From Armatimonadota bacterium (GTDB taxonomy: Bacteria; Armatimonadota; Hebobacteria; CAIYQO01), in NCBI GenBank assembly GCA_020060775.1, contig JAGUZN010000220.1:984-64983 (forward strand): a stretch of DNA of 64,000 nucleotides, read 5' to 3'. Shown piece by piece: positions 7,291 through 42,699 of this stretch. The notes beneath the pieces were generated by a model. The model searched no databases and was not told the origin of the DNA. It worked only from the letters and a program-made list of their open reading frames with translations. The position numbers and the translations under genes were made by a program. The first letter of the stretch is position 1. Every line of letters starts with the position of its first letter.

Positions 7291-8298
7291 TTACAGATCA
7301 AGCAATGATGCCGAATTCTCTTGAAACAACACCCCCATGCGGATATACCGCTGCACCATCACATTCGACCGATGACCGGTCTGCTGCATGATAGATCGCT
7401 CGTTTGCACCTGCACGGGCGGCGGCGGTGCAGTGGCCGGCGCGCAGGGAGTGACCGCTGTAGCGTTTCGGATCAAGGCCGATCTCTTTCACCATCTTCTT
7501 GATGAGATTGGCGACGGCACGATCCGATAAGCGCTCACTGCAGAGTTTGTCATGACGGTTGATGCCGCGGAAGAGGGCGCCGCCGGTAATCCCGCTGGAT
7601 TCCAGCCAGGATTTCAAGGCACGCACTGGACAGGTTTCTTCATGAGTGCCAAATGGTATGGCGACCCAACGCCCTTCACCTTCTTGATCTGTTTTTGATC
7701 GGCGGAGGCAGATAACGACTCCTTCCTCCCTGAAGGTCAGGTCGGCGACATCAAAGGCGACCAACTCGGAGCGCCGGAAGGCGCCAGCGTATCCCAGGAG
7801 TAGCAGTGCGCGGTCCCGCCGGCCTTTCAATGTCTCTGGTAATACCGCCATGATGCGTCTCATGTCATCGGTCATCAAGGCATCGACCTGGCGGGCGGTG
7901 ACGCCGATCCGCCGGCGAATGCCGCGCATGACGGCCCGCACGGCGGCGTGTTGGGTGGGGGAGGGGTGGCCAGCGTGTTGGTGGATGGCGCTGATGGCGG
8001 CCATATAGCGCGAGAGCGTGCTGTACTTGTGGTCGGTCGTCGCCATCGCCGTCATGTAGCAGGCAATCGTCTCAGGGCTGGCCGGCATCGACGGCAAGTG
8101 GTATTGTTCGCACCAGGCCACGAACTGCTGCCAATCCCGCTCGTAGGCCTCCCGCGTGTGTTGCGAGATACCTTCCTCGATGAACTCCTGGACTTGCTCG
8201 ATCAGTGGAACGAGAAGGGTGTGATCGGGGTGCTGGTTGGCACTGGGCCCGATCCGGGCAGGCAGTGATGCTGGCTGGGTGATGGGAGCCTGATCCAT
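7291..8298 (-). CDS. Tyrosine recombinase / phage-type integrase (XerC/D-like)
   Basis: N-terminal SAM-like domain (TREAYERDWQQFVAWC). C-terminal catalytic signature RRSELVAF..HSLRAGHCT..TGHRSNVMVQRYIR (R..HxxR..H..Y). Confidence 0.85.
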   Translation of the reverse strand: MDQAPITQPASLPARIGPSANQHPDHTLLVPLIEQVQEFIEEGISQHTREAYERDWQQFVAWCEQYHLPSMPASPETIACYMTAMATTDHKYSTLSRYMAAISAIHQHAGHPSPTQHAAVRAVMRGIRRRIGVTARQVDALMTDDMRRIMAVLPETLKGRRDRALLLLGYAGAFRRSELVAFDVADLTFREEGVVICLRRSKTDQEGEGRWVAIPFGTHEETCPVRALKSWLESSGITGGALFRGINRHDKLCSERLSDRAVANLIKKMVKEIGLDPKRYSGHSLRAGHCTAAARAGANERSIMQQTGHRSNVMVQRYIRMGVLFQENSASLLDL

Positions 8299-14564: not shown

Positions 14565-14642
14565 TGGCCTAGATAAGCGGTATGGCTCTCACCACATCGT
14601 GACGGGCCGGGTACAAGCATACCCGGCCCCCCCGATGACAGG

Positions 14643-15896
14643 TTACACCATCCGCACCAGCTTCCGCTGCTGGTTATCCCAACGCCATTCGGCTTGAGTA
14701 CCGTACAGGTGGACACCACCGAGCCAACGGTCGATGCCGTTGAGGGTGATCCAATCGGCCTGACCACGCATGACAGCTTCACCGTCGGAGGTAAGGGTAT
14801 ATGTTGTCTGAGTAATTGGCCAATCGCAGCGCGGAAGATCATGCGCGTGTTCGAGTCCACTGATAGTCAGAAGCGGATATTCGCGCGAAGCTAGCGGCTC
14901 GAGTTGATCAAATAGGTAGGAGAGACCGAAATAGGCAGGTTGCTCGAGGTCTGAGAGCCGGTGGAATATCTGATCATAACGATGATACCCATTGGCGACC
15001 AGTTCGAGGATCTCCTGCTCCATGCGATTCACCCCGTTTAGCAACGTGGGAAAGCGTTCCAGATGCTTCAGCAGCGCTGGGGCTAGATACGGGAGTGCAG
15101 AAGTGTCACCAGCAAGCACATGCTCAATCGAGGTCGGGTCCGCCGAACGGTAAGCCTGCCATGCTGCGACACCCAGGGTTGTTTGCACAGCGGACACCGG
15201 CTGTCGCTGCGGCAGCAAGCCGGCCAACTGCTCGTTGGATAGCTCACCCAGGCCATGGAAGACAGGTTTGCCCGGGTACTCGCCAATGCAGATGAGGCTG
15301 AGGGTAGTTCTGCCAAGCGTCTGGCGAGAGAACCAATCGAGTTGGCGGCAGAGCACGACCTGGTCGTATAAGCATGCGTCAAACCAGAGCACCACTTCCT
15401 GATACTCGGGAAACTCGGCTAATCGCCGGTCCATGTTCTGCAATGCCTGGATCGCCTGTGCGGGTGTCGGGAAGATTTCGGTGAGTTGCTGGGCACGCAA
15501 TTCCAGCCACTGCTGCTCCGTAACCCCGGAGGGAGTCGGCCCCTCGATCAGCGGGTCCAGCCAAGTCATGACGGTGCCAGGCACTCGGCTCTCGCGCAGA
15601 ACCAAGGCGGGCAGTTCGATGCAGAAGACGTGGAGATATCGCCGGGGGTCTTCCTGTTCGACATACTGCTTCAACGCACGCCAACTGGTGAAACCATAAT
15701 CTTGTGCAAGCGCAAATTGCATCTCCGTGAGTGTGACATCGGCTGATAGGATCTCATCCGGTGAGGCTGATGTAAATCGATGGAGATGCCGCAACACCGT
15801 ACAGACGGTCTGATCGCCCTGCTGGTGCGCGCGGAGGAGTGACTTGGCCTGCTTTTTGAGGTTTTCCAAGCTAGGCCGTGAAGGTAAGCTGGTCAT
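14643..15896 (-). CDS. Hypothetical protein (DUF1835/DUF3658-like layout)
   Basis: I trimmed the start to ATG 15896, which is preceded by AAAGGAGGT. N-terminal SLENLKKQAKSLLRAHQQGD helix motif, then YLHVFCIE..DPLIEGP. The family assignment is tentative. Confidence 0.4.
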   Translation of the reverse strand: MTSLPSRPSLENLKKQAKSLLRAHQQGDQTVCTVLRHLHRFTSASPDEILSADVTLTEMQFALAQDYGFTSWRALKQYVEQEDPRRYLHVFCIELPALVLRESRVPGTVMTWLDPLIEGPTPSGVTEQQWLELRAQQLTEIFPTPAQAIQALQNMDRRLAEFPEYQEVVLWFDACLYDQVVLCRQLDWFSRQTLGRTTLSLICIGEYPGKPVFHGLGELSNEQLAGLLPQRQPVSAVQTTLGVAAWQAYRSADPTSIEHVLAGDTSALPYLAPALLKHLERFPTLLNGVNRMEQEILELVANGYHRYDQIFHRLSDLEQPAYFGLSYLFDQLEPLASREYPLLTISGLEHAHDLPRCDWPITQTTYTLTSDGEAVMRGQADWITLNGIDRWLGGVHLYGTQAEWRWDNQQRKLVRMV

Positions 15897-16095
15897 ATGA
15901 CCTCCTTTCAACATTTGCCTGGCGTCTGCAATCACAGGCTGAAAGAAGGTGTCTTCATTCAGGGAACACGCATGGCAGGCTTGGCCCTTTCCGCAGACTG
16001 GAGGTGCCCATGACACACCTCTGTGGAGTATAATCAGTTGAACAGGTGCTGTCAACGGCAAGCGACAGCCGACAGCCTTTTCGAGGGAAGACCCG

Positions 16096-30008: not shown

Positions 30009-30307
30009 AGATATCTGGCATGTTGAATCAGGCAGACGATAATCGAAGAGTGACGCTCGGAAATTTTCATCGCTACGGCCACTTCCCACGCCGTCAAGTG
30101 ACCGCGTGATTCACGCAGGAGTACGATAGTGATGAGACGGTAGCCATGTCGTGATATCCCAGGTGGCAGGGATACAATATATGTGCGGTATCGTGCACTT
30201 AACAGAAATTGAGCTCGTCTTGCCAACTCTCATGTCTCTATTGACAGATTGAGCTGCATGATGCAATATCATATGCGAAAGTCCCCGCTACACTGGGTTA
30301 TTTGCAT

Positions 30308-31093
30308 ATGAGAGTGTCAACTGCAAGTGAATATGTGCGCACACTCCTCCAACGTGGCCGCTATACCTTCAGCCGCGATGAAGCCGAAGCCGCGCTGGGG
30401 AGTCCGCGTGCGACGATGAAGGCGTTACACCGGCTCGAAAACCAGGGATGGCTGGTCTCACCGAGCCAGTGCTTCTACGTCATCCAGGACCCCCTGCATC
30501 AAGTTGCCGGGTTACCTGTCGAATGGTTCCTGGATGATTGGGCGCGACACCTCGGCGTGAAGTATTATGTCGGACTGCTCACCGCGGCGATGTATCATGG
30601 CGCCGCCCATCAAAAGCCGCAGCAGTTTCAGGTGATCGTCGACCGGCAACTCAGACCGGTGGTTCGCGGTCCGTATCATATTCACTTCTTTTATAAGAAG
30701 CGCATTGCTGATGCCGCCTGGGAGACGCGGCAGTCACCTGCCGGCTACTACCGGATCAGCACCCCGGAAATGACCGCCTACGATCTCCTGCGGTATCCGA
30801 AGGCGTGCCCGACCCGTGATATGGCGGCCACCATCCTTGCGGAACTCGGCGAGATGATCCTGGACGACCGTTTGGCAGATCTCCTGGAGCAGGAAGCAGA
30901 GATTGCCACCCTCCAACGGCTGGGGTGGATGCTGGATGCGGTCGGCTGGTCAGCGAAGACCGAGGCGTTGGCCAGTGCATTACACTCCCATCGTCGGCTC
31001 TGGCAACCCTTGCGGCCTGATCTTCCAGCCGATGGCCCTCGCGACCCACGCTGGCGCATCATCGTGAATGAAACGATTGAGGTTGAGATATGA
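30308..31093 (+). CDS. abiEi: AbiEi-family antitoxin / transcriptional regulator (type IV TA, abortive infection)
   Basis: Sits immediately upstream of, and overlaps by ATGA, an AbiEii-type nucleotidyltransferase. The N-terminal winged-helix-like RTLLQRGRYTFSRDEAEAALG and the size (~260 aa) fit AbiEi. Confidence 0.6.
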   Translation: MRVSTASEYVRTLLQRGRYTFSRDEAEAALGSPRATMKALHRLENQGWLVSPSQCFYVIQDPLHQVAGLPVEWFLDDWARHLGVKYYVGLLTAAMYHGAAHQKPQQFQVIVDRQLRPVVRGPYHIHFFYKKRIADAAWETRQSPAGYYRISTPEMTAYDLLRYPKACPTRDMAATILAELGEMILDDRLADLLEQEAEIATLQRLGWMLDAVGWSAKTEALASALHSHRRLWQPLRPDLPADGPRDPRWRIIVNETIEVEI

Positions 31094-31917
31094 TCCCCGA
31101 GGCATTTCTCGCCGAGTGGCGAGTCACCAGCGCACCATGGCAGCAACTGGCCATGGTCGAACAGGACCTGGTCATCAGCCGGGCACTCCTGAATATCTAC
31201 GACGATGACTACCTCCGGGACCGATTGGCCTTTCGTGGAGGGACCGCGCTCTACAAGCTCTACCTGGTGCCGCCGGCACGGTATTCCGAAGACATTGATC
31301 TGGTGCAAATCAACGCCGAGCCCATTCGCGAGACCGTCGTTCACCTGCAAGCGGCACTCGACCCCTGGCTGGGGCAGCCGCGGTATACCGCAACCGCACA
31401 ATCGGTCAAACTGCTCTATCGCTTCGCGGCAGAAGCGACGCCAGGTCTGCAGCAGCGCCTGAAGATCGAGATCAATACGCGGGAGCACCTTCCGGCATTT
31501 GGCTTGGTCAATAGACCGTTCACTGTGCAATCCCGATGGGTCGACGGCACGGTTATGATCCCCACTTATGCCATCGATGAACTACTGGGCACGAAGCTGC
31601 GCGCGCTCTATCAACGCAAGAAAGGCCGTGATCTCTTTGACGTGGATTATGCCATGCGGCAAGGGGAGGTCGATGGGCAACGGGTGCTCACAGCCTTCAT
31701 GCATTATGTGTCTCGGCAGGGATTGCGCATCACCACCGGGCAGTACCAGGCCAACCTGCGGGAGAAGATGACGGACCCCCGGTTCGGCGCCGACATTGCC
31801 CCACTGCTGCGTGATGGGATTGCCTTCTCACTCGATGAGGCATTAGCCCGAGTGGAGGAGCAGTTCCTGCGTCACCTTGACGCCGCCTGGTCACAGGTGG
31901 CGGAGCCTGTCCCGTAA
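31090..31917 (+). CDS. abiEii: AbiEii/AbiGii-family nucleotidyltransferase toxin (DUF1814)
   Basis: LAFRGGTALYKLYLVPPARYSEDIDLV (GG-T-x-L .. S-E-D-I-D NTase core) and KLRALYQRKKGRDLFD. Confidence 0.8.
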   Translation: MIPEAFLAEWRVTSAPWQQLAMVEQDLVISRALLNIYDDDYLRDRLAFRGGTALYKLYLVPPARYSEDIDLVQINAEPIRETVVHLQAALDPWLGQPRYTATAQSVKLLYRFAAEATPGLQQRLKIEINTREHLPAFGLVNRPFTVQSRWVDGTVMIPTYAIDELLGTKLRALYQRKKGRDLFDVDYAMRQGEVDGQRVLTAFMHYVSRQGLRITTGQYQANLREKMTDPRFGADIAPLLRDGIAFSLDEALARVEEQFLRHLDAAWSQVAEPVP

Positions 31918-31919
31918 GA

Positions 31920-32830
31920 TCAGCAGCCATGTTGTTGCTGGTAACAGCCACTTAACGGAAGCCAGCCATTAACACCACTGGGATCGAGCACGAAGGCGAC
32001 CGCGTCGGTGCTGGTAAATACCCAGAGCCACCAGCGCAATTTCGTCTTGTCGTTGAAGTGGAGCCACCACGTTTCATCCGCGTGCCAGTGGTCGGCCATA
32101 CGCAGATGGAGGAGGGTGGCATCATAGAGCGACGGAGCAGCGCGCCGACGGTGTCTTGCACCCTGAAGAGTGTGCTGGAGGCGAAGCGCACGCCGCAACA
32201 CAGGGTCAGTGCGTACAGTTAGCGGTAGACGGTTGGCCGTGGAGGAATTTGTTGACGACCAGGTGCGCAATGGCGCCGGTTCGGGATGAGTTTCGGCGGC
32301 GCAAGCGCGGGCAATTGCACCGTGGAGCCCGGCAGGTGGTACTTTCGCCGCATATGGATGACGCGCCGTATCCTGGCCTCCCCGTTTGAGGTTGGTGGCG
32401 TCTTTCGTGCCAGCGGTGGTGAGTAGTACTTCCCAAAGATGGGGCATTGGCGTGCCTCCTCGGGGAGGTTATGGAGCACCTCGCTGGGCGGCAACTATTG
32501 GTAGAGCCGACAGCCATGGCCGGGAGTGCCGTGCCGTTGCCCGCTCTGACCATGCGGCGCGTCGGTGGGCGCATCAGCCGACGGGATTGGCTGGAGTCGG
32601 GGGCGTCTGCGGCGGCACCGCGGAGGCTCTGCTCGGATTTTCGCCAAACAGCATCGTCTATTATTGCGGATGAGGGCATATTGCTTGGCGACCATCTCGC
32701 GCAAGGCGGCGTTGTCGGAGAGCAACTGTTCGACGGTCTCCTGCAGCGAGACGACGGTGGTCTCCAGCGTCTGGAGGCGCGCCAGCAGGGACGCGATGTC
32801 ATAGGCGGTGGGTGCAATGGACATTCCTCT
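31920..32830 (-). pseudogene. Decayed, 3'-truncated IS66-family transposase
   Basis: IS66 landmarks are spread over three minus-strand frames. These are an N-terminal coiled coil (LQTLETTVVSLQETVEQLLSDNAALREMV), a WRKSEQ box, the zinc-finger region LPEEARQCPIFGKYY..RRKYHLP, and HADETWW..WLWVF (first DDE Asp). The sequence ends before the rest of the DDE domain. Confidence 0.65.
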
Positions 32831-33086
32831 CCAGATTCACGAGAGGAGAGACACAGTCCTTTCAGAGAAGGCACCTTTCAGAGAAGGCGCTTGACGTGCA
32901 GGGGGGGGCAGTATTATGATGGTATCGGTGAACTCATCTGAAAGGGAAAGGGGTTCACCGAATACTTATCTTCACGAATTCACGGTCGACCTGTGTGGTG
33001 CGAAGGCTCATCTAGAATTCCCGTGATGCGACAACGTGCTCCTGCGTGGCAATATCCGCCTCACAGGTCTCGAGAACAGTTGGCGT

Positions 33087-33335
33087 TCACGGGCACTTGG
33101 GTAAGTGCGTAATCGGGTCGAATAGGACACGACCTTTCTTGCGTTGATACAAGGCGCGTAGTTTGCTCACAAGCAATTCTTCCAGTGAGAAGTTGATGAC
33201 GGAGACGTTATCCTGTACCCATCGCGAGTCGACGGCAAATGGTCTAGCAGCCTGTTGCACAACCACGGCCGATTTTCTGTCAACCGACAGAGCGCAAGCC
33301 GATGATTGCACTGAAATGGCTGTTAAGATGAACAT
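33087..33335 (-). pseudogene. Fragment of a second, inverted AbiEii-type gene
   Basis: RPFAVDSRWVQDNVSVINFSLEELLVSKLRALYQRKKGRVLFD aligns with RPFTVQSRWVDGTVMIPTYAIDELLGTKLRALYQRKKGRDLFD of 31090-31917. Only ~45 aa are retained. Confidence 0.7.
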
Positions 33336-33659
33336 CTCGGTTTGGTAAGGTTGGACCCTGTTACGTTATTGAGCTCGAATGCTTACCTGTAGACCAAGGG
33401 CACGTCCTTGCTCAACAGGCTGCTAGGCACCAGCACGGTCTGTTCAATATGCGCACGGGTAATCGTCCCCTTGGAGAAGTGACGGTATACCCATGCGCGC
33501 TTTTCATTCCCGCTCGGTCAGGTGAGTCACGGCGTCCAGCCGGCCCGGCACTATATGGGGGAGCCGAGCCTTATGGCTTATAATCGGTTGTGGACGTGGC
33601 AATGAGAATACGATCAGTACCGATACCACTATTTTGGGGGAAGGAAGGAATCCGCTGCT

Positions 33660-35342
33660 TTGCACCAAATACACTATTTGTGTGCCATCATGCCGATTAG
33701 GACTGATAATATGAGTTTGTCAACAAAAACTCCTCAAAATCCAGATCTGGCAAATCCTAGCAGTTGCCATTCCAGTTTAGGACCCCTTAGGCTGCCGCAG
33801 TCATTTTATGGCGATGCGTTCACGACGTTTCTATATGGAGCGGCGATATGCTGTATCGTTACGAAGGTCGATGCTGGTTATTCATGGTCTAATTTCGGTC
33901 TGTTGGCAATCATCTATATATTTTTTGATTGGGTTAGCAGAATTCTTTTACCATCATGTTTGCCCAATGACGACTTAGCTGTGAGAAATCGCATATACTT
34001 GAATGTGCTAAAAGCACTACTGGAAGCTGCAGGTTTATACTTGCTTACCGCTTTCCTTCTATCTGTTTTCACAACACCATTATACGGGTTATTTGCAGGA
34101 TTTTTGATCGTCAATTTATTGTGGAATTTGTTGTTGTTGTATATTATGGGTGGCCTTGGATGGAGGGACTTACAAGATGTTTGTTTTAAAGGTAATGGAA
34201 TGGATAACGAAGCTATAGCATTACATTCGTCGACCATTACGGAAATCGAAGCTCTAATAGAGAAGGCTGATATCTCTACTGACAATGCAAACACTAGTAG
34301 TCAAGTCATAAAAACGTATAATAATCACATAAAGCTTCGTAGTAGTATCAATTCAATAGGCGCAATCTACCGGATGCTCATACAATTGTTCGCATTTCAT
34401 GTTCGATATGGATATGTAGTTATTGTAATATTTGTTGCCAAGATGCTATTGGAGAGTACAACGAATACTTGGGGAAGTTTTCTGTTGAAAAAAACATATT
34501 TTTCTGTAGTGCTTGATTTCGCACAAGTCACAACAATGCACATAAGCATTTTTTGTGATAATGGCTATTTGGATGAGATATTTCTTACTGTATTAATATT
34601 AATACTTTGTGGTTTTGTTTTACGCTCTGTTAATATCAGTAATGTTTTTCAGAGTGATTGGTGGAAAAGTTACATTGCTAGTATTAAAGATAAAAACTAT
34701 GAAATGCTTGTCCCGTGGATGAAGATAATATGCAGTGTACCACTTTTCTTTGCTTGTTTGTACATATTATATATAATATGTTTTGTTGTATACACTTATT
34801 ACCCGCAGTTGTTCGCAGGTATTGATAGTGAAGGTGTAGGCATTGGCTTCCCAATCTTACTTTTTATTTATATTTTGTTGTTTTTCATACCTTTCTTATT
34901 TTTTAAATACGCACAACTTAATAAAATTATGAAAAAATCAATTGCTTCAAATGGAGATAACCATAAGAATCACGCCTCTATTTCTTGCTCATGCCCTCCT
35001 TCCAAAATCCAAGGAGAGGAGGAGAATAAAGCGATTGTCATTGAGAATTTACGATTTCAACAGGCTTGTAGAAATGGGTCATTATCACTTTATATCATTC
35101 TATTACTACTTTACTTCGCGTTGCCGATAAAAGACTTTGCAATATTTATTGCATTCCAGCAGGCCTGTGTTACGCTATTCCTATGTATCGCCGTATCTTG
35201 TCCACTTGAACAGAGAGATGAACCTATTGGCAACTTATGTCGAATGAACTCCCCGAGACCGACTTCGTGCCCTCCAAATATTAACGACGGGCTTGATGAT
35301 ACAACATCAGTGACGCCGAAAGAACAGGTAACAAGTTCATAG
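33660..35342 (+). CDS. Polytopic membrane protein of unknown function (about 11 hydrophobic segments)
   Basis: 560-aa ORF in an AT-rich segment (~36-40% GC). Repeated 18-25-residue hydrophobic stretches such as LYGLFAGFLIVNLLWNLLLLYIMGG and IGFPILLFIYILLFFIPFLFF. No family motif recognised and the start is uncertain. Confidence 0.6.
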   Translation: MHQIHYLCAIMPIRTDNMSLSTKTPQNPDLANPSSCHSSLGPLRLPQSFYGDAFTTFLYGAAICCIVTKVDAGYSWSNFGLLAIIYIFFDWVSRILLPSCLPNDDLAVRNRIYLNVLKALLEAAGLYLLTAFLLSVFTTPLYGLFAGFLIVNLLWNLLLLYIMGGLGWRDLQDVCFKGNGMDNEAIALHSSTITEIEALIEKADISTDNANTSSQVIKTYNNHIKLRSSINSIGAIYRMLIQLFAFHVRYGYVVIVIFVAKMLLESTTNTWGSFLLKKTYFSVVLDFAQVTTMHISIFCDNGYLDEIFLTVLILILCGFVLRSVNISNVFQSDWWKSYIASIKDKNYEMLVPWMKIICSVPLFFACLYILYIICFVVYTYYPQLFAGIDSEGVGIGFPILLFIYILLFFIPFLFFKYAQLNKIMKKSIASNGDNHKNHASISCSCPPSKIQGEEENKAIVIENLRFQQACRNGSLSLYIILLLLYFALPIKDFAIFIAFQQACVTLFLCIAVSCPLEQRDEPIGNLCRMNSPRPTSCPPNINDGLDDTTSVTPKEQVTSS

Positions 35343-35384
35343 TTAATGGTATATAAGTGATCATCAGATTGGAGTGACCAAGCG

Positions 35385-36842
35385 ATGTCTATGATTGATC
35401 TAGTCATAATAGGAGTTTATTTGATGGCGTTGTTCTGCTGGGCTATTTATATTGGCCTGCGAGAAAACGCCCAAGATTTTTTGGTTTTCTCGCGGCGTGC
35501 TCCTTTTGTGCTGGTATTGTTTTCTATTGTAGCTACCTGGGTTGGCGTTGGCACGACCGTAGTGACAGCGGCATCGGCATACGAATCCGGTATCTCACTA
35601 GGATTGATCGCCTGCCTTGGGGGCGTGTTGGGGTCTATCGGTGCCGCAATCTTTGCCCCTCGTCTGAAAGCGTTTGGAGACCGTTTCAACGCGCATACCA
35701 TCGGAGACTTCTTCCTGATCCGGTATTCAAACGGTGGACGCTTGATGGCTGGTGCACTGATAACAATCGTCTATTCACTGCTGACCGCCGCGCAACTCGT
35801 AGGGCTTGCAACGCTCTTGAAGGTTTGGACTGGGCTTCCTGTGGAGGTCGTCATCATTTTTGCTGCGTTTTCCACCGTAGCCTATACGGCGTTCGCTGGG
35901 ATCAAAAGCGATTTTTATACCGACATCATACATTTTATAGTTATGGCAATTGTTCTCTTTGTTATCCTATTGCCATTGACACTGGATAAAATTGGCGGAT
36001 TACATGGATTGCTGCGATTACCTCATACTTATTTCGATCCCTTCTCCTACGGAGGGCCAGCTCTATTCATCGCTGGAATGATCTTTGGCGCAGGCAGTGT
36101 TTTCGTGACCATGGAGCTTTGGCAACGCGTCTACGCATCAACAACCGGACGTGCCGCACGTATCTCGCTTGCAGTTGCCATCCTTCTTATCGTTCTCTTT
36201 TACGCGGTATCCACTGTGTTGGGTATGTCAGCAAAGCTACTATTACCGAATCTGCCGAATCGTGATTTTGCCTTGTTTGCGATGATGAAAGAGTATTTAC
36301 CTACAGGTATGCTGGGGCTAGGGATGTCAGGATTCATGGCGATTATTCTGTCTACCTTAAACTCAACACTGATGGTAACCTCTGCGACCTTCACCAAGGA
36401 TTTCTGGTGTGGAGCTCTTAATAAATCCGCTGATGACCAAAAGGCATTGTTATCTGTGGGCCGAATTTCTACATTTGTGAGCGGAGCTATTGGTCTGGGG
36501 ATTGCCTTGATACTACCTGATCTGGTTGCCTTAAGTGTCAATGGCATGTTCATGTTGCTGATCATCCTTCCAGCCATCGCTGGGGGATTCTTCTGGCGAC
36601 GTGCTACTGCCACGGCTGCAACGCTTTCCGTCTTCGCAGGAGCGCTTGTGACAGTGATTTTCTTGAAAATCGATGCTGGTATCGCGTTTGTGCCTGGTTT
36701 TCTCACAAGCCTTCTAGTTTTCGTTATTGGCTCTCTTGTCACTGAGCACTCTATAGAAGAAAATATTGGAGTTGTTTCTATGTGGCGAGGGAAAGCGGAA
36801 ATCCCGTCGATGCATGAAGGAGATGTTCATGACTTACGTTAA
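35385..36842 (+). CDS. Sodium:solute symporter family (SSF) transporter
   Basis: IIGVYLMALFCWAIYIGLRENAQDFLVFSRRAPFVLVLFSIVATWVGVGT is the typical SSF N-terminus. About 13 TM segments. Confidence 0.75.
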   Translation: MSMIDLVIIGVYLMALFCWAIYIGLRENAQDFLVFSRRAPFVLVLFSIVATWVGVGTTVVTAASAYESGISLGLIACLGGVLGSIGAAIFAPRLKAFGDRFNAHTIGDFFLIRYSNGGRLMAGALITIVYSLLTAAQLVGLATLLKVWTGLPVEVVIIFAAFSTVAYTAFAGIKSDFYTDIIHFIVMAIVLFVILLPLTLDKIGGLHGLLRLPHTYFDPFSYGGPALFIAGMIFGAGSVFVTMELWQRVYASTTGRAARISLAVAILLIVLFYAVSTVLGMSAKLLLPNLPNRDFALFAMMKEYLPTGMLGLGMSGFMAIILSTLNSTLMVTSATFTKDFWCGALNKSADDQKALLSVGRISTFVSGAIGLGIALILPDLVALSVNGMFMLLIILPAIAGGFFWRRATATAATLSVFAGALVTVIFLKIDAGIAFVPGFLTSLLVFVIGSLVTEHSIEENIGVVSMWRGKAEIPSMHEGDVHDLR

Positions 36843-37932
36843 TACTGTGGAGCAAGTAAGCGATAAGCTGATGGCTGCTACCGATTCTGCGAATTGTTCT
36901 GCGATGTCAGCCTTACTCCACCAGGTGTGCCAATCGCTTCAAGAGTCTGACGCATCATTCTTGCGTCATTGGTATAATAGTCGGCTTACACGCGCCTGCG
37001 AAAACCCTATGCTTGGCGAAAAAGCCGTTACCATCTTCGCAGATTTGCTAGGAATTACCGTCGAGACGGCACAATGCGTTGAGAAGCCATGGATGCTTCT
37101 ATACATCCATGCACTCTTATTAGATGACATGATTGATTATATCCCTAGAGAAGAATCAAAAAAAGTTCAATCATTATGCAGCGCTTTCGATAGGGAACAC
37201 AATAAAGTATGTGAGCTGCTATTGAATGAAAATTTTGTGGTGTATTCACATCACCATCAGCGCTTCAATGCTGAAGCATGGGCAGCTATAACTTACGAGA
37301 TTGAATGGTCAAAAGGAACTAGATTCACATCACATAATGAAGCGCCACGTCAGCAAGGCCTCAAAGCCGCTCTCGCAAAGTCGTGTGCTACCATGCTTAT
37401 GCTTGCTGAACGTGGTATACCTCTTTCATCAGAACAGGAAGAGGGCATTATTACATTATGCGAAGGTATTCAACTTCTAGACGATTTTGCTGATATGACA
37501 GAAGATTATATGCAAGGACGTATGAATAGGTTGTTGAATACAACATATCGATGGATAAGGAGAAATCTGCCATGCATAGATATAGCTTATCTGGGCAAAT
37601 ACCAGCTACTCGTCTCTGCGATTCTTTCTTCTGCGATTACCTGCACATGGATTGATGCGGCAAATCGATATGAGCAGACATTGCAGATATTTAAACCCTC
37701 TAGTGAGTGCTGGACTGCTCAATATTTTTTGCAACAATCAGTGGAATGTCGACTATGCAGCACTGCATTAACTGATTTACTCACGCAAAATCGTTGCCTG
37801 TTGGATCAACTCATCACAGCTCTGAGTGTGAACGAAGAAGAATTAGCGTGTAAGTTAACAACCGGATGCCTAGCCGGTTTATGGCAAGATATTCGCTATA
37901 TTATTGGGACAGGACCAAAAGCAAGTAATTGA
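36829..37932 (+). CDS. Isoprenoid-synthase-fold protein (polyprenyl synthetase/terpene-synthase-like) with two Asp-rich motifs
   Basis: IHALLLDDMIDY is a first DDxxD motif. CEGIQLLDDFADMTEDY matches the second G-x-x-Q-x-x-DDxxD motif. Start is ATG 36829, 6 nt after GAAGGAG, overlapping the symporter 3' end. Confidence 0.5.
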   Translation: MTYVNTVEQVSDKLMAATDSANCSAMSALLHQVCQSLQESDASFLRHWYNSRLTRACENPMLGEKAVTIFADLLGITVETAQCVEKPWMLLYIHALLLDDMIDYIPREESKKVQSLCSAFDREHNKVCELLLNENFVVYSHHHQRFNAEAWAAITYEIEWSKGTRFTSHNEAPRQQGLKAALAKSCATMLMLAERGIPLSSEQEEGIITLCEGIQLLDDFADMTEDYMQGRMNRLLNTTYRWIRRNLPCIDIAYLGKYQLLVSAILSSAITCTWIDAANRYEQTLQIFKPSSECWTAQYFLQQSVECRLCSTALTDLLTQNRCLLDQLITALSVNEEELACKLTTGCLAGLWQDIRYIIGTGPKASN

Positions 37933-38309
37933 CCGTGGGCAATTCCATCATCGCCTGGGCAATATAGACACTTTTTTCTGAATTAGGTGACAGTATGGGC
38001 AAACTGAAGTGTTCTCAGGAGGCGCGTTTTTTCTTCCGGCATTTTGCCCGGCGTCGTCGCATCTCCTCATAATCGGGTAACGCGTATGCCGGTTCTTCCC
38101 CCTGTGCCCTGGCAGCTTTAGCGACTTGGCACCTGAGTACCCCACGTGCGAAGATATCGACGAGTTCCGCCAGGCGGGCCTCGGGGGTCATCTTGGTCGG
38201 GTCGATGGTGGTATTGAACATGGGACACACCCCTTTCATGAACGTATGACGGACAATACCTCAACATCGGCTGACATGGGAAGGGGATGGCGGAAGATTG
38301 TTTTTGAGG

Positions 38310-39698
38310 ATAACGTAGGATATTTTTCGCACTTTCACCGAGGGGTTGCGGTGTAGCCCTTTCGCTGAGTAGAGTGTAAGCGCCAACTTACCATACTCAC
38401 GAAAGGGACTACACACGATGAACACTACGACAATCACTGGTGAGAGTCAAGCCCAAGCCGGGCTGGTGACGATCAATGAGGGGGAGCTGCGGGCGCATCT
38501 CGACCAGATCGTCACCGGCGCGGTGGAAGAGACGCTGAACCAATTGCTTGACGCGGAAGCGGAGGCGTTGTGCCAGGCGCGACGCTATGAGCGGACGGCG
38601 ACGCGGCAAGATACGCGGGCCGGGCATTACGCGCGTAAGCTCCAGACGCGGGCGGGCGAGGTGACGCTGAAGGTGCCGAAACTGCGGCAGCTGACCTTTG
38701 AGACGGCGATCATCGAGCGCTACCAGCGCCGGGAAGCCTCGGTGGAAGAGGCGCTGATCGAGATGTACCTCGCCGGGGTGAGCGTCCGGCGGGTGGAAGA
38801 CATCACCGAGGCGCTGTGGGGCACGAAGGTGAGCGCCTCGACGGTGAGTGACTTGAATCAGAAGCTCTACCTGCGCCTGGACGACTGGTTGGCCCGTCCG
38901 TTGACCGGGGACTTTGCCTACGTCTATCTGGACGGGCTCTGGCTGAAGAAGAGTTGGGGCGGCGAGGTGCAGACGGTCTCGGTGCTGGTGGCGGTGGGGG
39001 TGAGCGCCGACGGCTACCGGGAGATCCTGGGAGTCGCCGAAGGCATGAAGGAGGATACCGCAAGTTGGCGGGACTTCCTGCGGGGGATGAGGGCGCGGGG
39101 ATTGCAGGGTATCCGGCTGGTGGTCTCCGATTGCTGCCTGGGGCTGGTGGAGGCGCTGGGCGAGGTCTTCCCCGAGGCTGCTTGGCAGCGGTGCGTGGTG
39201 CACTTCTACCGCAATGTGCTGGGACAGGTGCCGCGGGGTAAGAGCCGGGAGGTGGCGACGATGCTGAAGGCGATTCATGCCCAGGAGGATCGCACGGCTG
39301 CCCTGCAGAAAGCAGAGGATGTCGCCGGGAAACTCCGGGGGCTGAAGCTGGAGAAGGCGGCCAAGGTGCTCCAAGCGGGCATCGCCGATACGCTGGCGTA
39401 CTATGCCTTCCCGAGTGAGCACTGGCGGAGTCTGCGTACGAATAATCCGTTGGAACGACTGAATCGAGAGATCCGTCGGCGGACCCGCGTGGTGGGCTGT
39501 TTCCCCGATGGCCGCTCGGCGGTGATGCTGGTGACCGCGCGCCTGCGGTATCTGGCCAGTAAAGACTGGGGGACCAAGCGGTATTTGAACATGCAACGCC
39601 TCTGGGACGCGGCGCCTTCCGGGGAGGAGGGCGCGTAGCGCGGAGGACAATCAGGCGCTCATACTCTACAAAAAGTGCGAAAAACTCTGGACACTACC
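38310..39698 (+). mobile_element. IS256-family insertion sequence (~1.39 kb) with a target-site duplication
   Basis: Single mutator-type transposase gene. Imperfect terminal inverted repeats share a perfect 13-bp core TTTTTCGCACTTT (38323-38335 and the reverse complement of 39672-39684). Flanked by the direct repeat TTTTTGAGG at 38301-38309 and 39699-39707. Confidence 0.85.
38418..39638 (+). CDS. IS256-family (mutator-type) transposase
   Basis: LNQLLDAEAEALCQARRYERT..RAGHYARKLQTRAGEVTLKVPKLR..IERYQRRE..MYLAGVSVRRVEDI..YLDGLWLK matches the canonical IS256 Tnp pattern. Confidence 0.9.
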   Translation: MNTTTITGESQAQAGLVTINEGELRAHLDQIVTGAVEETLNQLLDAEAEALCQARRYERTATRQDTRAGHYARKLQTRAGEVTLKVPKLRQLTFETAIIERYQRREASVEEALIEMYLAGVSVRRVEDITEALWGTKVSASTVSDLNQKLYLRLDDWLARPLTGDFAYVYLDGLWLKKSWGGEVQTVSVLVAVGVSADGYREILGVAEGMKEDTASWRDFLRGMRARGLQGIRLVVSDCCLGLVEALGEVFPEAAWQRCVVHFYRNVLGQVPRGKSREVATMLKAIHAQEDRTAALQKAEDVAGKLRGLKLEKAAKVLQAGIADTLAYYAFPSEHWRSLRTNNPLERLNREIRRRTRVVGCFPDGRSAVMLVTARLRYLASKDWGTKRYLNMQRLWDAAPSGEEGA

Positions 39699-39914
39699 TT
39701 TTTGAGGTGGTTTTCGCTGGTCGTGGGGGAGGGGGGAACGGAAATATAACCGAGAGAGGAACATGGCAAAGAACATGTACGGTAAACCCGGAACTGACCG
39801 CCAAAAGAGGAACAATTTTATACTCAGCGGCTTGATGTGTTAATCGGCGTTTCGGGGTTAGGCCCCTGCGGAGCCACACCCCTTTCGCCAGCCAACTGCT
39901 TATAGCATTAGGTT

Positions 39915-39947
39915 AACCGACCGTCGGAGATCATCCGGCGGTTTTTT
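39915..39947 (+). terminator. Possible orphan intrinsic terminator
   Basis: AACCG(A)CCG..CGGCGGTT forms an 8-bp stem with one bulge, followed by TTTTTT. No obvious upstream plus-strand gene apart from the IS. Confidence 0.3.
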
Positions 39948-40242
39948 CGTGTTTGTGAGCACGAATTCTCTCTCGGCGAGAGATTTCAGGTACTTACCTT
40001 AGCACTACACGCGCCCCCCATCGCCACCCCATCTCTCCGAAATTGCCCACTTCTCTCTGCCGCTCTGAGAGGTTCTCTCTGTCCGGTTAACAGCATGCGG
40101 AAATGATTTTCAAAATGCGGAAAAAGTGTATACCGGGGTGGAAAAGTTGTAAAACAAGGGTGGAGAAACTGCTGACTGTTGAGTCATCGACGATGTCTAC
40201 TGTCCTACTTAAGCATATGCGTATTTTGGGAGAAGGGGTGAC

Positions 40243-41010
40243 ATGGGATGGAAGCGAAAGTATAATGATCTTATCGTGAAATCACCTACCTTGTTGAGGT
40301 ATTATGCTTCATCGAAGGGTATATCAATGTCACCAACTATTGGGCATCATTCAGAATTACCGCTTACGACCGAGCAAGTATTAGCGCTGACGCGCATAGT
40401 GTTTCTCGATCCAGTCGACCCTGTGCCGTGCGACTTGATTTTCATTTTCGGTGGAACGCATCCTGGGGCGTGGGAGGCAGGAGCCGAAGCTTACTTTAAC
40501 GGATTAGGGCAGCAAATCTTTGTGGTTGGCGGTATTCCCCGAAATCCGAAAGCACCGCATGTTTCCTGGACGGGCGAGGACCGCTTCGTCCCTAATTGCC
40601 GGCGAATTGCGACTAATCTGATTCGCCTTGGTGTCCCAGAACATGTCATCAGTTGCGACGAGCGTCCATTGAATTCCTACGAAGAGGCAATGTGCCTCCG
40701 TGCATTCATTGGTACTCACCCGGAAATCGTCAGTGTGCTCTTTATCTCAAAAGGCTGGGGAATCGGTCGGCAATTTCGTACGTTACACCACAACCTGCCT
40801 GGTGACATTGTATTGGTGCCATACCCCTTTGAAACTAACCTTGGTGAGGGTGAAGCTGTCACACGGGAAAATTGGGCTGACAGCCCACAGGGTAGAGCGA
40901 TGGTTATTGCAGAATACAACCGCATACTAACTTATGGAAAACAGGGCGGTCTCACACCGTTGGCGTCTCCGGTTGTTGGGTTAGAAGACATAAGACTATC
41001 GCATCTGTAG
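40243..41010 (+). CDS. DUF218/YdcF-like (ElyC/SanA family) protein
   Basis: CDLIFIFGGTHPGAWEAGAEAYFNGLGQQIFVVGG resembles the DUF218 core. Start may be ATG 40327. Confidence 0.4.
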   Translation: MGWKRKYNDLIVKSPTLLRYYASSKGISMSPTIGHHSELPLTTEQVLALTRIVFLDPVDPVPCDLIFIFGGTHPGAWEAGAEAYFNGLGQQIFVVGGIPRNPKAPHVSWTGEDRFVPNCRRIATNLIRLGVPEHVISCDERPLNSYEEAMCLRAFIGTHPEIVSVLFISKGWGIGRQFRTLHHNLPGDIVLVPYPFETNLGEGEAVTRENWADSPQGRAMVIAEYNRILTYGKQGGLTPLASPVVGLEDIRLSHL

Positions 41011-41459
41011 ATACACCCCAATTCCGTACAGGTTAGATGGTGATAGAATGGTACAAGCTTGATACCTGATGCGATATGTTGCCACTGCTGCCGTTGCATT
41101 GCCCAGTCTGGGATCATGGCAATCCGTCGCAACTCCTTTTCGCTCATCGGGTCTTTCCCGTGCTGCATCGGTAGCTCTGTCAGTTGCTCCTGAATCTCCG
41201 GTGCCAGGAATTTCAGCGTGAGAATCTGCGCGACCCGTGCTCGCGACATCTGTGCCAGCCGGGCGATCTCCGCATAGTCCTTTACGGCGCCTTGCGCGAT
41301 CAAGTCATCAAAGTGATGCGCCAGCGCCAGCACGCGCGCTACGCGGGGTATGCGTCCGACGGGCTGGGGCTTCTCGCCTTGTCGCAATACCTTCCGTCCC
41401 TTTGCTTGTGTGGCGAAATGCACAGTGTATTCCATGCGGAGTGGGGTCTCGGTGCTCAT
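40932..41459 (-). CDS. HTH protein of the type found downstream of large serine recombinases
   Basis: IPRVARVLALAHHFDDLIAQGAVKDYAEIARLAQMSRARVAQILTLKFLAPEIQEQL. This is the pattern I recall from accessory genes that follow serine recombinases. The 3' end overlaps the convergent gene by 79 nt. Confidence 0.45.
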   Translation of the reverse strand: MSTETPLRMEYTVHFATQAKGRKVLRQGEKPQPVGRIPRVARVLALAHHFDDLIAQGAVKDYAEIARLAQMSRARVAQILTLKFLAPEIQEQLTELPMQHGKDPMSEKELRRIAMIPDWAMQRQQWQHIASGIKLVPFYHHLTCTELGCIYRCDSLMSSNPTTGDANGVRPPCFP

Positions 41460-41462
41460 AGC

Positions 41463-41657
41463 TTATGCCTCCTCAATGTGTTGTGCGGCCAGTTGTTGGG
41501 CGCTGGTCATCTCATCGTATAATGCGGCGATGCCGGTGGGGCGGAAGGTGATGCCGATCTTCCCGGTGCTCGCGGTGAAGTCGATCTGCTCAATGAGCAA
41601 ACGCAGGATGCGTGCGCGCTCGACGCGGTAGAGGACATCCCAGACCGGATCGAACAA
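41463..41657 (-). pseudogene. C-terminal remnant of a large serine recombinase
   Basis: FDPVWDVLYRVERARILRLLIEQIDFTASTGKIGITFRPTGIAALYDEM matches the conserved extreme C-terminus of recombinase-family proteins. The catalytic N-terminal part is absent, and the upstream sequence is replaced by the repeat array at 41680. Confidence 0.5.
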
Positions 41658-41679
41658 TTCCAGCGCGGCGCGGAAGTCC

Positions 41680-41798
41680 GTAATACGGTGACACGTAATA
41701 CGGTGACAGGTTAGTAATACTGTGACAGGTTATGTATTTCGCGTAATACGGTGACAGGTTATGTATTTCGCAATAATAGCTAACCTGTCATCGTATTC
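41680..41798. repeat. Iteron-like array: four direct copies and one inverted copy of GTAATACGGTGACAGGTTA
   Basis: Direct copies lie at 41680-41693 (14 bp), 41695-41713 (19 bp), 41714-41742 and 41743-41771. The last two are a 29-bp tandem pair with one mismatch. An inverted copy TAACCTGTCATCGTATTC lies at 41781-41798. Confidence 0.8.
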
Positions 41799-41952
41799 TA
41801 TGGCGACGCGAATTATGTAAGTTCTCGACCTTTAATGTTATGGTATGCCTCGACGATATAGAGATGATGGTTGACATGAGAGAAGAGAAAAGCGTATATC
41901 TTCTTGTTTGGCCGTGACCGAATCTATTCACACCATGAGGAGATTTCCCGAA

Positions 41953-42699
41953 ATGGACATTCCCCGGATCTTCAATATCACTGAAAGCGCTCACCGCATC
42001 CATAACCCGTTTACACCCGACAAGCTCGCTAGGCTCGGCGAGGCGCTGCGTCTGGAAAGGGGGACCCGCGTGCTCGACCTCGGCAGCGGTTCGGGGGAGA
42101 TGCTGTGCACCTGGGCACGTGATCACGGAGTCATCGGCACCGGCATCGACATGAGCCAATTGTTCACGGAGCACGCGAAAATCCGCGCTAAAGAACTCGG
42201 CGTCGCCGATCAAGTCCAGTTCATCCATGACGATGCTGCCGGCTACGTCGCCGACGAAAAGGTCGATGTGGCAGCCTGTGTCGGCGCCACGTGGATCGGC
42301 GGTGGAGTCCCCGGCACGATCGAGCTGCTGGCACAGAGCCTCAGCACCGGAGGGATCATCCTCATCGGCGAGCCCTACTGGCGGCAGTTACCGCCGACGG
42401 ACGATGTTGTCAAAGGGTGTCATGCCCATTCAATCTCCGACTATCTCATACTGCCTGAACTACTCGCGTCGTTCGGCCGCCTTGGCTATGATGTCGTGGA
42501 AATGGTGCTGGCTGACCAGGATGCCTGGGACAGATACGAGGCGGCCAAATGGCTCACCATGCGCCGATGGCTTGATGCCAATCCCGACGATGAGCTCGCG
42601 AACGATGTCCGAGTCCAACTGACCTCGGAACCTGAGCGCTACGCCACGTACACGCGTGAATATATGGGCTGGGGCGTGTTCGCACTGATGGCGCGGTGA
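41953..42699 (+). CDS. Class I SAM-dependent methyltransferase
   Basis: VLDLGSGSGEMLCTWARDHGVIGTGIDMS. Start chosen at ATG 41953, after GAGGAG. The ORF is open from 41908. Confidence 0.7.
   Translation: MDIPRIFNITESAHRIHNPFTPDKLARLGEALRLERGTRVLDLGSGSGEMLCTWARDHGVIGTGIDMSQLFTEHAKIRAKELGVADQVQFIHDDAAGYVADEKVDVAACVGATWIGGGVPGTIELLAQSLSTGGIILIGEPYWRQLPPTDDVVKGCHAHSISDYLILPELLASFGRLGYDVVEMVLADQDAWDRYEAAKWLTMRRWLDANPDDELANDVRVQLTSEPERYATYTREYMGWGVFALMAR

Follow-up and report, generated by a model that had tools for sequence, protein, structure and literature searches.

In REPINs, two inverted repetitive extragenic palindromic (REP) sequences form a hairpin, and the genes of the REP-associated tyrosine transposases (RAYTs) are flanked by such sequences (PMC3337134, PMC5581495). 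Tandem clusters of REPs are likewise known, the mechanism of their formation being unexplained (PMC3337134, PMC5581495), while in some RAYT groups only ~12-14 copies of the flanking 16-mer are present per replicon (PMC5581495). Here we describe a repeat cluster of 120 bases at positions 41680-41799 of a 64,000-nucleotide stretch of DNA from an Armatimonadota bacterium (contig JAGUZN010000220.1; the whole stretch is hereafter called the window), comprising five copies of GTAATACGGTGACAGGTTA, namely one truncated, three direct and one inverted copy. We consider it probable, at roughly 60%, that this array is a gene-less REP/REPIN-like cluster and that its units belong to a repeat family serving a Y1 (HUH) tyrosine transposase of the RAYT-like kind. 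This reading is based on a core sequence that brackets Y1 transposase genes at two loci in other genomes (L066 and L097), on further gene-less clusters of the same core, and on the hairpin anatomy of the array itself.

The repeat array and its hairpin doublet

The first copy in the array (c1; 41680-41694, plus strand) is a truncated unit of 14-15 nucleotides, GTAATACGGTGACAc, which becomes one half of a perfect 15-bp tandem duplication when position 41679 is included. It is followed on the same strand by an exact 19-mer (c2; 41695-41713), made up of GTAATAC and the 12-nucleotide core GGTGACAGGTTA, and by two 29-nucleotide units, the first (c3; 41714-41742) carrying the 19-mer with one mismatch (G>T) and the second (c4; 41743-41771) the exact 19-mer, in both cases followed by TGTATTTCGC. 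In c3 and c4 the core is enclosed by the short inverted flanks AATAC/GTATT. The fifth copy (c5; 41775-41799, with the 19-mer part at 41781-41799) lies on the minus strand and shows three mismatches to the 19-mer, but is alike to c4 at 20/25 positions, the similarity reaching 41775. An earlier sequence-only reading of this locus had described four head-to-tail copies of the 19-mer, which holds for c2 to c4 (c3 with its mismatch) but not for c1, which falls short of the full length; its description of the last two direct copies as 29-bp tandem units with one mismatch agrees with the single-base difference between c3 and c4, and the inverted copy it placed at 41781-41798 was found at 41781-41799. 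When the 19-mer was searched with up to three mismatches, five matches were obtained in the 64-kb window, all inside the array, compared with 0.00 expected from shuffles, and the array of 19-bp sites is real and reads as had been described.

According to Tandem Repeats Finder, the direct copies are a chain of three duplications, each of two copies, with periods of 15 bp (41679-41708; 100% match), 19 bp (41695-41732) and 29 bp (41714-41771), and the array thereby supplies three of the six tandem duplications detected across the 64 kb. The direct copies of 15, 19 and 29 nucleotides are prefixes of one sequence with a common starting base, and the junction between the array and the neighbouring open reading frame (ORF) falls on the same boundary as the 5′ start of these copies. 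Among themselves the direct copies diverge by 0-1 nucleotides, whereas the inverted c5 differs at 5/25 positions. Because c5 is the more diverged, the pattern fits an older doublet of c4 and c5 that has been followed by a recent expansion of the direct copies.

Copies c4 and c5 form the left and right arms, respectively, of a REPIN-like inverted doublet (41745-41797), with 23-nucleotide arms that are 87% complementary around a 7-nucleotide centre. The stem TGACAGGTTA/TAACCTGTCA with a 19-nucleotide loop that had been read from the sequence is present, the complementarity being longer than was recognised at the time. As single-stranded DNA, the doublet forms a stem of 17 bp (-14.7 kcal/mol; z = -7.8), a stability reached by 0/200 shuffles, while the hairpins of single units are weak (-2.6 to -4.3 kcal/mol). 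Among the 21 units of the motif family, including those in other genomes, the core is closed by a stem of 4 bp or more in 15/21, compared with 11% with shuffled flanks, and of 5 bp or more in 9/21, compared with 8% when flanks are paired across loci.

The array is extragenic, being located between a minus-strand ORF with its first start codon at 41657 and a methyltransferase gene starting at 41953, yet it abuts the end of the ORF homology. The region 41650-41950 yielded no Rfam match and no phage match. In the literature, the core sequence is present only within unrelated sequences, while two single matches to the exact 19-mer were found in a metagenome collection, both attributable to chance and one of them inside a coding region. 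Elsewhere in the window, a lone GATGACAGGTTAC (14634-14646), one mismatch from the family 13-mer and with the same G>A variant as c5, is located between convergent genes, just 3′ of a terminator-like hairpin and overlapping the stop codon of the ORF at 14643-16061 (minus strand). Matches of this type are expected ~0.08 times by chance, and the site may be a second REP-like copy.

Related units at RAYT-like transposase loci and in gene-less clusters

With one genome per species scanned, 66 loci were found at which two copies of the core lie near each other. Most of these are cyanobacterial heptamer arrays or plain tandem arrays and are unrelated to the array, only L026, L031, L033, L066 and L072 being informative. 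L066 harbors a gene for a 223 amino acid Y1 (IS200-like) transposase (Pfam Y1_Tnp; E = 9.6e-11), which is bracketed by AATTGGTGACAGGTTAC, present twice in direct orientation ahead of the gene and twice in inverted orientation behind it. A homologue sharing 62% identity with this transposase (P0316) is encoded at L097, a locus chosen by protein similarity alone, and here the exact 13-mer GGTGACAGGTTAC is found around the Y1 gene at 1403 and 1445 on the plus strand and at 2160 and 2203 on the minus strand. One of these copies, GGAATACGGTGACAGGTTAC, has 17 contiguous nucleotides, AATACGGTGACAGGTTA, in common with the window unit. The L097 gene occupies one conserved locus in 16 contigs, and the L066 and L097 proteins each match a single NCBIfam model, 'REP-associated tyrosine transposase' (E = 1e-18 to 1e-19).

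Gene-less clusters in which direct and inverted copies of the core are mixed are found in three other genomes. On a Dehalococcoidia chromosome (L033; 7378-7489), two direct and two inverted copies of the core are arranged with each pair 19 nucleotides apart and with a G+C-rich spacer of 30 nucleotides, while one Eubacteriales metagenome-assembled genome (MAG) contains three intergenic core loci located just after gene ends (L026/L072). In a Rhodospirillales MAG (L031; 3722-3815), a truncated 19-nucleotide copy, GGGAAAGCGGTGACAGGTT, precedes two full 37-nucleotide units with a common start base, which is the staircase pattern also present in the window. The Dehalococcoidia cluster lies 42 nucleotides upstream of a gene for a 51 amino acid CopG/helix-turn-helix (HTH)-like protein, in a region coding for proline-rich and unknown proteins. 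Y1 transposase homologues on plasmids show 31-38% identity overall and have other flanking motifs in a similar layout. Those on plasmids of Skermanella, Pseudomonas aeruginosa and Iodobacter, which are only 31-35% identical, are flanked by direct copies upstream and an inverted copy downstream, with motifs that differ from the core but are reminiscent of it (GGGGTCAGAG, AAAGGGGACAGAT). A scan of viral contigs for further Y1 transposase loci found none.

In the autonomous form of such an element, as it appears in other genomes, the transposase gene is preceded by two direct copies and followed by two inverted ones. The window would then hold a derivative without the gene, in which c4 and c5 constitute the hairpin doublet and c1 to c3 represent recent partial duplications of its left arm, the growth of that arm being due to a chain of three tandem duplications, of 15, 19 and 29 bp, from a common start base. 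The cognate Y1 enzyme would be encoded elsewhere in the source genome and, by analogy with TnpA-REP of E. coli and TnpA of IS608, may recognise the folded single-stranded unit and then cut and rejoin the DNA beside it. The staircase of partial copies could have been generated by strand transfer from a fixed 5′ cut or by stuttering of a polymerase at the foot of the hairpin, and the same process could have produced the junction with the neighbouring ORF and the loss of its 5′ part. Either HUH chemistry, whereby a 5′-phosphotyrosine at a fixed cut is joined to varied 3′ ends, or polymerase stuttering would give the fixed 5′ boundary, and the two are indistinguishable here.

A bolder proposal, which we put forward as doubtful, is that a RAYT-like Y1 lineage spanning several phyla makes use of one nearly invariant core of 12-13 nucleotides (GGTGACAGGTTAC) in a small hairpin, with two direct copies and two inverted ones in a constant arrangement, the staircase copies in the window (15, 19 and 29 nucleotides) and at L031 (19, 37 and 37 nucleotides) being in vivo footprints of a fixed 5′ cut, one such event having removed the 5′ part of the neighbouring ORF. 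Were this footprint reading true, genome sequences could directly reveal where an uncharacterised HUH enzyme cleaves and joins DNA.

Several observations weigh against placing the array among REP/REPIN-type elements. No Y1 transposase is encoded in the 64-kb window, which beyond the array has one doubtful core-like copy only, that at 14634, and the cluster is situated between divergent genes, not the commonest location for REPs. The L066 and L097 transposases score 67-71 bits, under the NCBIfam cut-off of 80 bits. L066 was itself found via the core search and is subject to selection bias, such that L097 provides the sole independent test. Furthermore, the core is a near-dimer of a heptamer and is also contained in unrelated arrays such as the cyanobacterial heptamer repeats, while the window core ends in GGTTAG or GGTTAT, not in GGTTAC as in its relatives.

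The link to a transposase made in the sequence-only reading is retained by our analysis, but the kind of system is changed, a RAYT-like Y1 (HUH) enzyme with REP/REPIN-type DNA taking the place of a Tn7/Mu-like one. This kind of element is already known, and the array looks like a modest further example of REP/REPIN selfish DNA. If this is true, the 'iteron-like' array is ordinary selfish DNA of this type and not a regulatory or replication element, and annotation of the locus as a transposon end, an origin or a recombinase site should accordingly be avoided. One core both brackets RAYT-like genes and forms gene-less hairpin clusters across genomes labelled as several phyla, which is unusual because REP families are usually lineage-specific. 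This conservation across labelled phyla and the anchored partial copies are possibly the unusual aspects of the family, and the latter provide a testable guess at the cut site of the enzyme.

Flanking modules and alternative explanations

The alternative that survives best, although we regard it as unlikely, is that the array represents a pure rearrangement scar. An old quasi-palindrome would have stalled replication or been cut, with serial template switching or slippage giving rise to the nested copies and the deletion junction, no transposase being involved and the RAYT likeness being coincidental. Such an origin is in keeping with the three chained two-copy tandem duplications of different periods in one register, with the share of the window's tandem duplications found in the array (three of six), with the irregular spacing of 15, 19 and 29 nucleotides, and with the contrast between the direct copies (0-1 nucleotides apart) and the inverted copy (5/25 positions), which would point to an old palindrome and a recent expansion. 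A possible microhomology of 5/7 nucleotides at the gene junction (GTATTAC vs GTATGAA) and the absence of both array and motif from relatives of either flank can be added. Coincidence does not readily explain, however, the 17 contiguous nucleotides in common with a copy beside a RAYT-like gene to which protein homology alone had led, the recurrence of the same core and the same direct/inverted layout around two RAYT-like genes and in several gene-less clusters, or the equivalent staircase at L031. Slippage may still account for the multiplication of the copies, and it is the part of this explanation that denies any relation to REP/RAYT systems which is disfavoured.

The gene junction itself is formed with a 5′-shortened ORF (41463-41657, minus strand), homologous to the C-terminal ~70 amino acids of large serine recombinases, the frame of which is open to 41681 and has a TTG at 41657 as its sole start codon. 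This left ORF matches residues 430-492 of a large serine recombinase ORF of 493 codons on a Shinella replicon (38% identity; E = 9e-9), corresponds to those residues only, and is devoid of catalytic resolvase, recombinase and zinc-ribbon domains. The alignment begins at 41678, i.e. at the array edge, while DNA similarity to the relative at L082 possibly continues 7 nucleotides into c1, to 41686 (12/15 nucleotides in frame), and a microhomology between the left ORF and c1 is possible at the junction.

The ORF had been taken for a serine recombinase gene cut off at the array, of which the C-terminal homology and the 5′ shortening are borne out; the nearest relatives, however, are not interrupted recombinases but short ORFs of 108-127 amino acids, one of them at least being preceded by a ribosome-binding site of its own. 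In the database, the closest relatives reach 67-85% identity and are without exception 59-121 amino acids long, the window ORF having ~45-55 N-terminal codons fewer than its nearest kin, and their homology to the recombinase begins at varied residues (~390, 392, 399, 401 and 425). An exhaustive search identified the domain as the C-terminus of full-length recombinases of 380-580 amino acids, the best of which (P0136) is 52% identical to the relative P0004. Neither the rest of the recombinase nor a DUF2924 gene was found in the 64-kb window. At L082, the relative is preceded by a Shine-Dalgarno-like AAGGGAG and starts with an ATG directly after a baseplate-wedge gene. The relative at L003-L006 is divergent from a tape-measure/tube operon whose end, on the other strand, consists of DUF2924 and the N-terminus of a recombinase, with the DUF2924-recombinase pair of L005 located 3 kb away on the opposite strand. 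Judged on these alignments, the left ORF is recombinase-C-terminal-like and 5′-shortened, which does not imply the former presence of a full recombinase body. The closest relatives are short stand-alone ORFs.

Downstream of the left ORF, as had been noted and as in the relatives, an HTH-type partner is encoded (40932-41459, minus strand; PHROG 14161; E = 1.5e-20), the arrangement being syntenic in six loci. The partner matches its relatives up to approximately residue 128 (~41075-41100), after which it has an unrelated extension of 45 amino acids that overlaps the 3′ end of a DUF218/YcdF-like gene (40243-41010). This loss of similarity (41010-41100) is a second rearrangement junction, so that the relic spans only ~41075-41686. 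The two genes are flagged here as a module that recurs without a recombinase body: a short C-terminal-like ORF (59-127 amino acids) together with a PHROG 14161 partner is found at L003-L006, L007, L008/L009, L082 and L083, often beside phage tail genes and with different flanks each time. The short ORFs of this module could be relics or could form a stand-alone family that modulates a recombinase. The possibility that a recombinase gene carrying its own att site was split on integration was also considered, but fits neither L082, with phage DNA upstream and host-like genes downstream, nor L005, with the recombinase gene on the opposite strand 3 kb away.

The related loci L001-L009, L082 and L083 are without the motif, and relatives of the left module have no array at the equivalent place.

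On the other side of the array, an AT-rich orphan spacer (41800-41906; 40% G+C) matches relatives of neither the left nor the right module, and the 227 bp between the two modules have a G+C content of 40%, compared with ~60% in the flanks. The right module is a class I S-adenosylmethionine-dependent methyltransferase block (41907-42699, plus strand), which is not part of the repeat element and contains the gene at 41953-42699, the start at 41953 being as previously given. In all relatives of the methyltransferase, the shared block extends from 41-46 nucleotides upstream of the ATG (41907-41912) to the stop codon and never includes the array.

More than 7,900 homologues of the methyltransferase were found, with identities of 85-88% in genomes whose labels span many phyla (Syntrophales, Competibacteraceae, Nitrospira, Armatimonadota and Geomonas among them), and the DNA is 70-81% identical on Azospirillum, Methylocystis and enterobacterial replicons (L084-L096). 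The relatives adjoin IS3 and IS256 elements, tyrosine integrases and a TraG-like gene or conjugation genes, and the block behaves like very mobile cargo. The cassette-like neighbourhoods of these relatives prompted us to consider an integron attC/attI boundary, which was rejected. The polarity is reversed (GGTTA ... TAACC) relative to RYYYAAC ... GTTRRRY, no attC follows the methyltransferase, the next gene following directly, and the only tyrosine recombinase gene lies 34 kb away.

An operator is a less probable alternative than a scar. The HTH partner or a regulator of the methyltransferase operon would bind the direct and inverted 19-mers and control divergent promoters in the AT-rich spacer, and a regulator-binding array for the methyltransferase was among the options first raised for this locus. 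Mixed direct and inverted sites are frequent in operators, the array is located between divergently oriented ORFs, and a minus-strand site weakly resembling a promoter (41841 to 41812) is directed into it; furthermore, the related cluster at L033 lies just upstream of the small CopG/HTH-like gene. Nevertheless, such promoter-like sites number one in the sequence compared with 1.3 expected in shuffles, and with spacings of 15, 19 and 29 nucleotides the sites would face different sides of the helix. L008 and L082 carry almost the same HTH segment as the window, yet have neither the 12-mer (up to two mismatches) nor an array, and in all methyltransferase relatives examined the block begins at the equivalent of 41907-41912, without the motif. 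With relatives of both candidate regulatory partners lacking the motif, a binding array for either is unlikely.

Far less probable still is a DDE-type transposon end (Tn7, Mu or Tn402-like), or that of another element, inserted in a full-length serine recombinase gene, with the repeats serving as transposase-binding sites. The ends of Tn7, Mu and Tn402 carry several direct sites of 19-22 bp, and in the window direct sites are packed where gene homology stops abruptly. However, no inverted matching end was found in the 64 kb (19-mer, up to three mismatches), nor was a transposase, TnsABC/TniABQ, rep or relaxase gene found rightward as far as 58 kb, the ORFs in this direction being metabolic, MinD-like or of unknown function. 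The sole transposase leftward belongs to the IS256 family and has unrelated ends, which also disposes of the junction as an IS256-type end. The missing part of the recombinase and DUF2924 are not in the window, the two metagenomic matches to the exact 19-mer are both due to chance, nested truncated copies are foreign to such ends, and the nearest relatives of the ORF are short ORFs. A Tn7/Mu-like end, as originally suggested, has largely been refuted within the window already.

Equally improbable is that a plasmid, an integrative and conjugative element or a prophage has left its replication iterons, its oriT or a res/att site of a serine recombinase here, since the 120-bp AT-rich region with its direct repeats and inverted repeat, situated beside a recombinase-related ORF in a patch of mobile-DNA remnants (IS256, AbiE and IS66-like pieces), has no rep, relaxase or partition gene nearby, shows irregular spacing (15, 19 and 29 nucleotides) in a chromosomal context (smc is in the window) that speaks against the iterons suggested earlier, has an odd palindrome centre of 7 nucleotides compared with 2 nucleotides in serine-recombinase sites, and is without counterpart at recombinase-family loci, including L001 with its intact recombinase.

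To the left of the array, remnants of mobile and defence elements form a patch (30302-40000) that includes an AbiEi/AbiEii pair (30302-31917), IS66-like fragments at ~32-33 kb (judged by eye), a low-G+C stretch at 33.6-38 kb (34-48% G+C) with large ORFs without a Pfam match, and the IS256-family transposase gene (38418-39638), with ends of the TTTTTCGCACTTT type. A perfect 16-bp tandem duplication, CCTTTCAGAGAAGGCA, inside the IS66-like remnant (32858-32888) is among the few other duplications in the window. No tyrosine integrase is located near the array; the tyrosine recombinase gene at 7291-8298 (minus strand; Phage_integrase and an N-terminal SAM-like domain), 34 kb distant, shows no apparent link to it.

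Comparison with described systems

Several described systems resemble this locus in part. Theta-plasmid iterons are likewise direct repeats of ~19 bp in an AT-rich stretch, but in the window the phasing is irregular, the context is chromosomal, a rep gene is absent, and DnaA boxes were not noted. The ends of Tn7, Mu and Tn402 share the close packing of several ~19-22-bp direct sites and an inverted partner. They differ in that the window is without a DDE transposase, accessory genes and an opposite end, and in that its copies are irregularly spaced, nested truncations, with the inverted one 19 nucleotides away and not at the far end of an element. With the DUF2924-associated large serine recombinases and their PHROG 14161 partner, the left flank shares an ORF that aligns to the last ~70-110 residues and the same HTH-type partner, whereas the window ORF and its closest kin are short (59-127 amino acids), with no catalytic, recombinase or zinc-ribbon domain, and several of them lie beside phage tail genes with their own start signals.

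With the IS200/IS605 family, represented by TnpA of IS608, the transposases of the motif family share the Pfam Y1_Tnp domain and hairpin-forming sites beside the gene. IS608 cuts after a TTAC tetranucleotide, and the core of the relatives ends in TTAC. The fixed 5′ boundary with variable 3′ ends is, moreover, what 5′-phosphotyrosine chemistry would give. The ends of IS608 differ in not being mutual inverted repeats, with hairpins on one strand, and IS200/IS605 elements are multicopy together with their gene, whereas the L097 gene is found at one conserved locus in 16 contigs.

Our main reading likens the array to REP/REPIN and RAYT systems, such as the REP/BIME sequences of E. coli with TnpA-REP and the REPINs of Pseudomonas fluorescens SBW25. 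These share with the array short, extragenic, imperfectly palindromic units, an inverted pair that forms a hairpin doublet, and local clusters with tandem copies, and in other genomes the units of the motif family bracket a single-locus Y1/HUH gene whose sole NCBIfam match is the RAYT model. The family departs from these systems in its core of 12-13 nucleotides, constant across genomes labelled as different phyla where REPs are usually lineage-specific, in the two direct copies on each side of its transposase genes, and in the GTAG head of classical REPs, which is not evident in the window family. The window, in addition, differs from them in amplifying one arm only of the doublet, by nested partial duplications.

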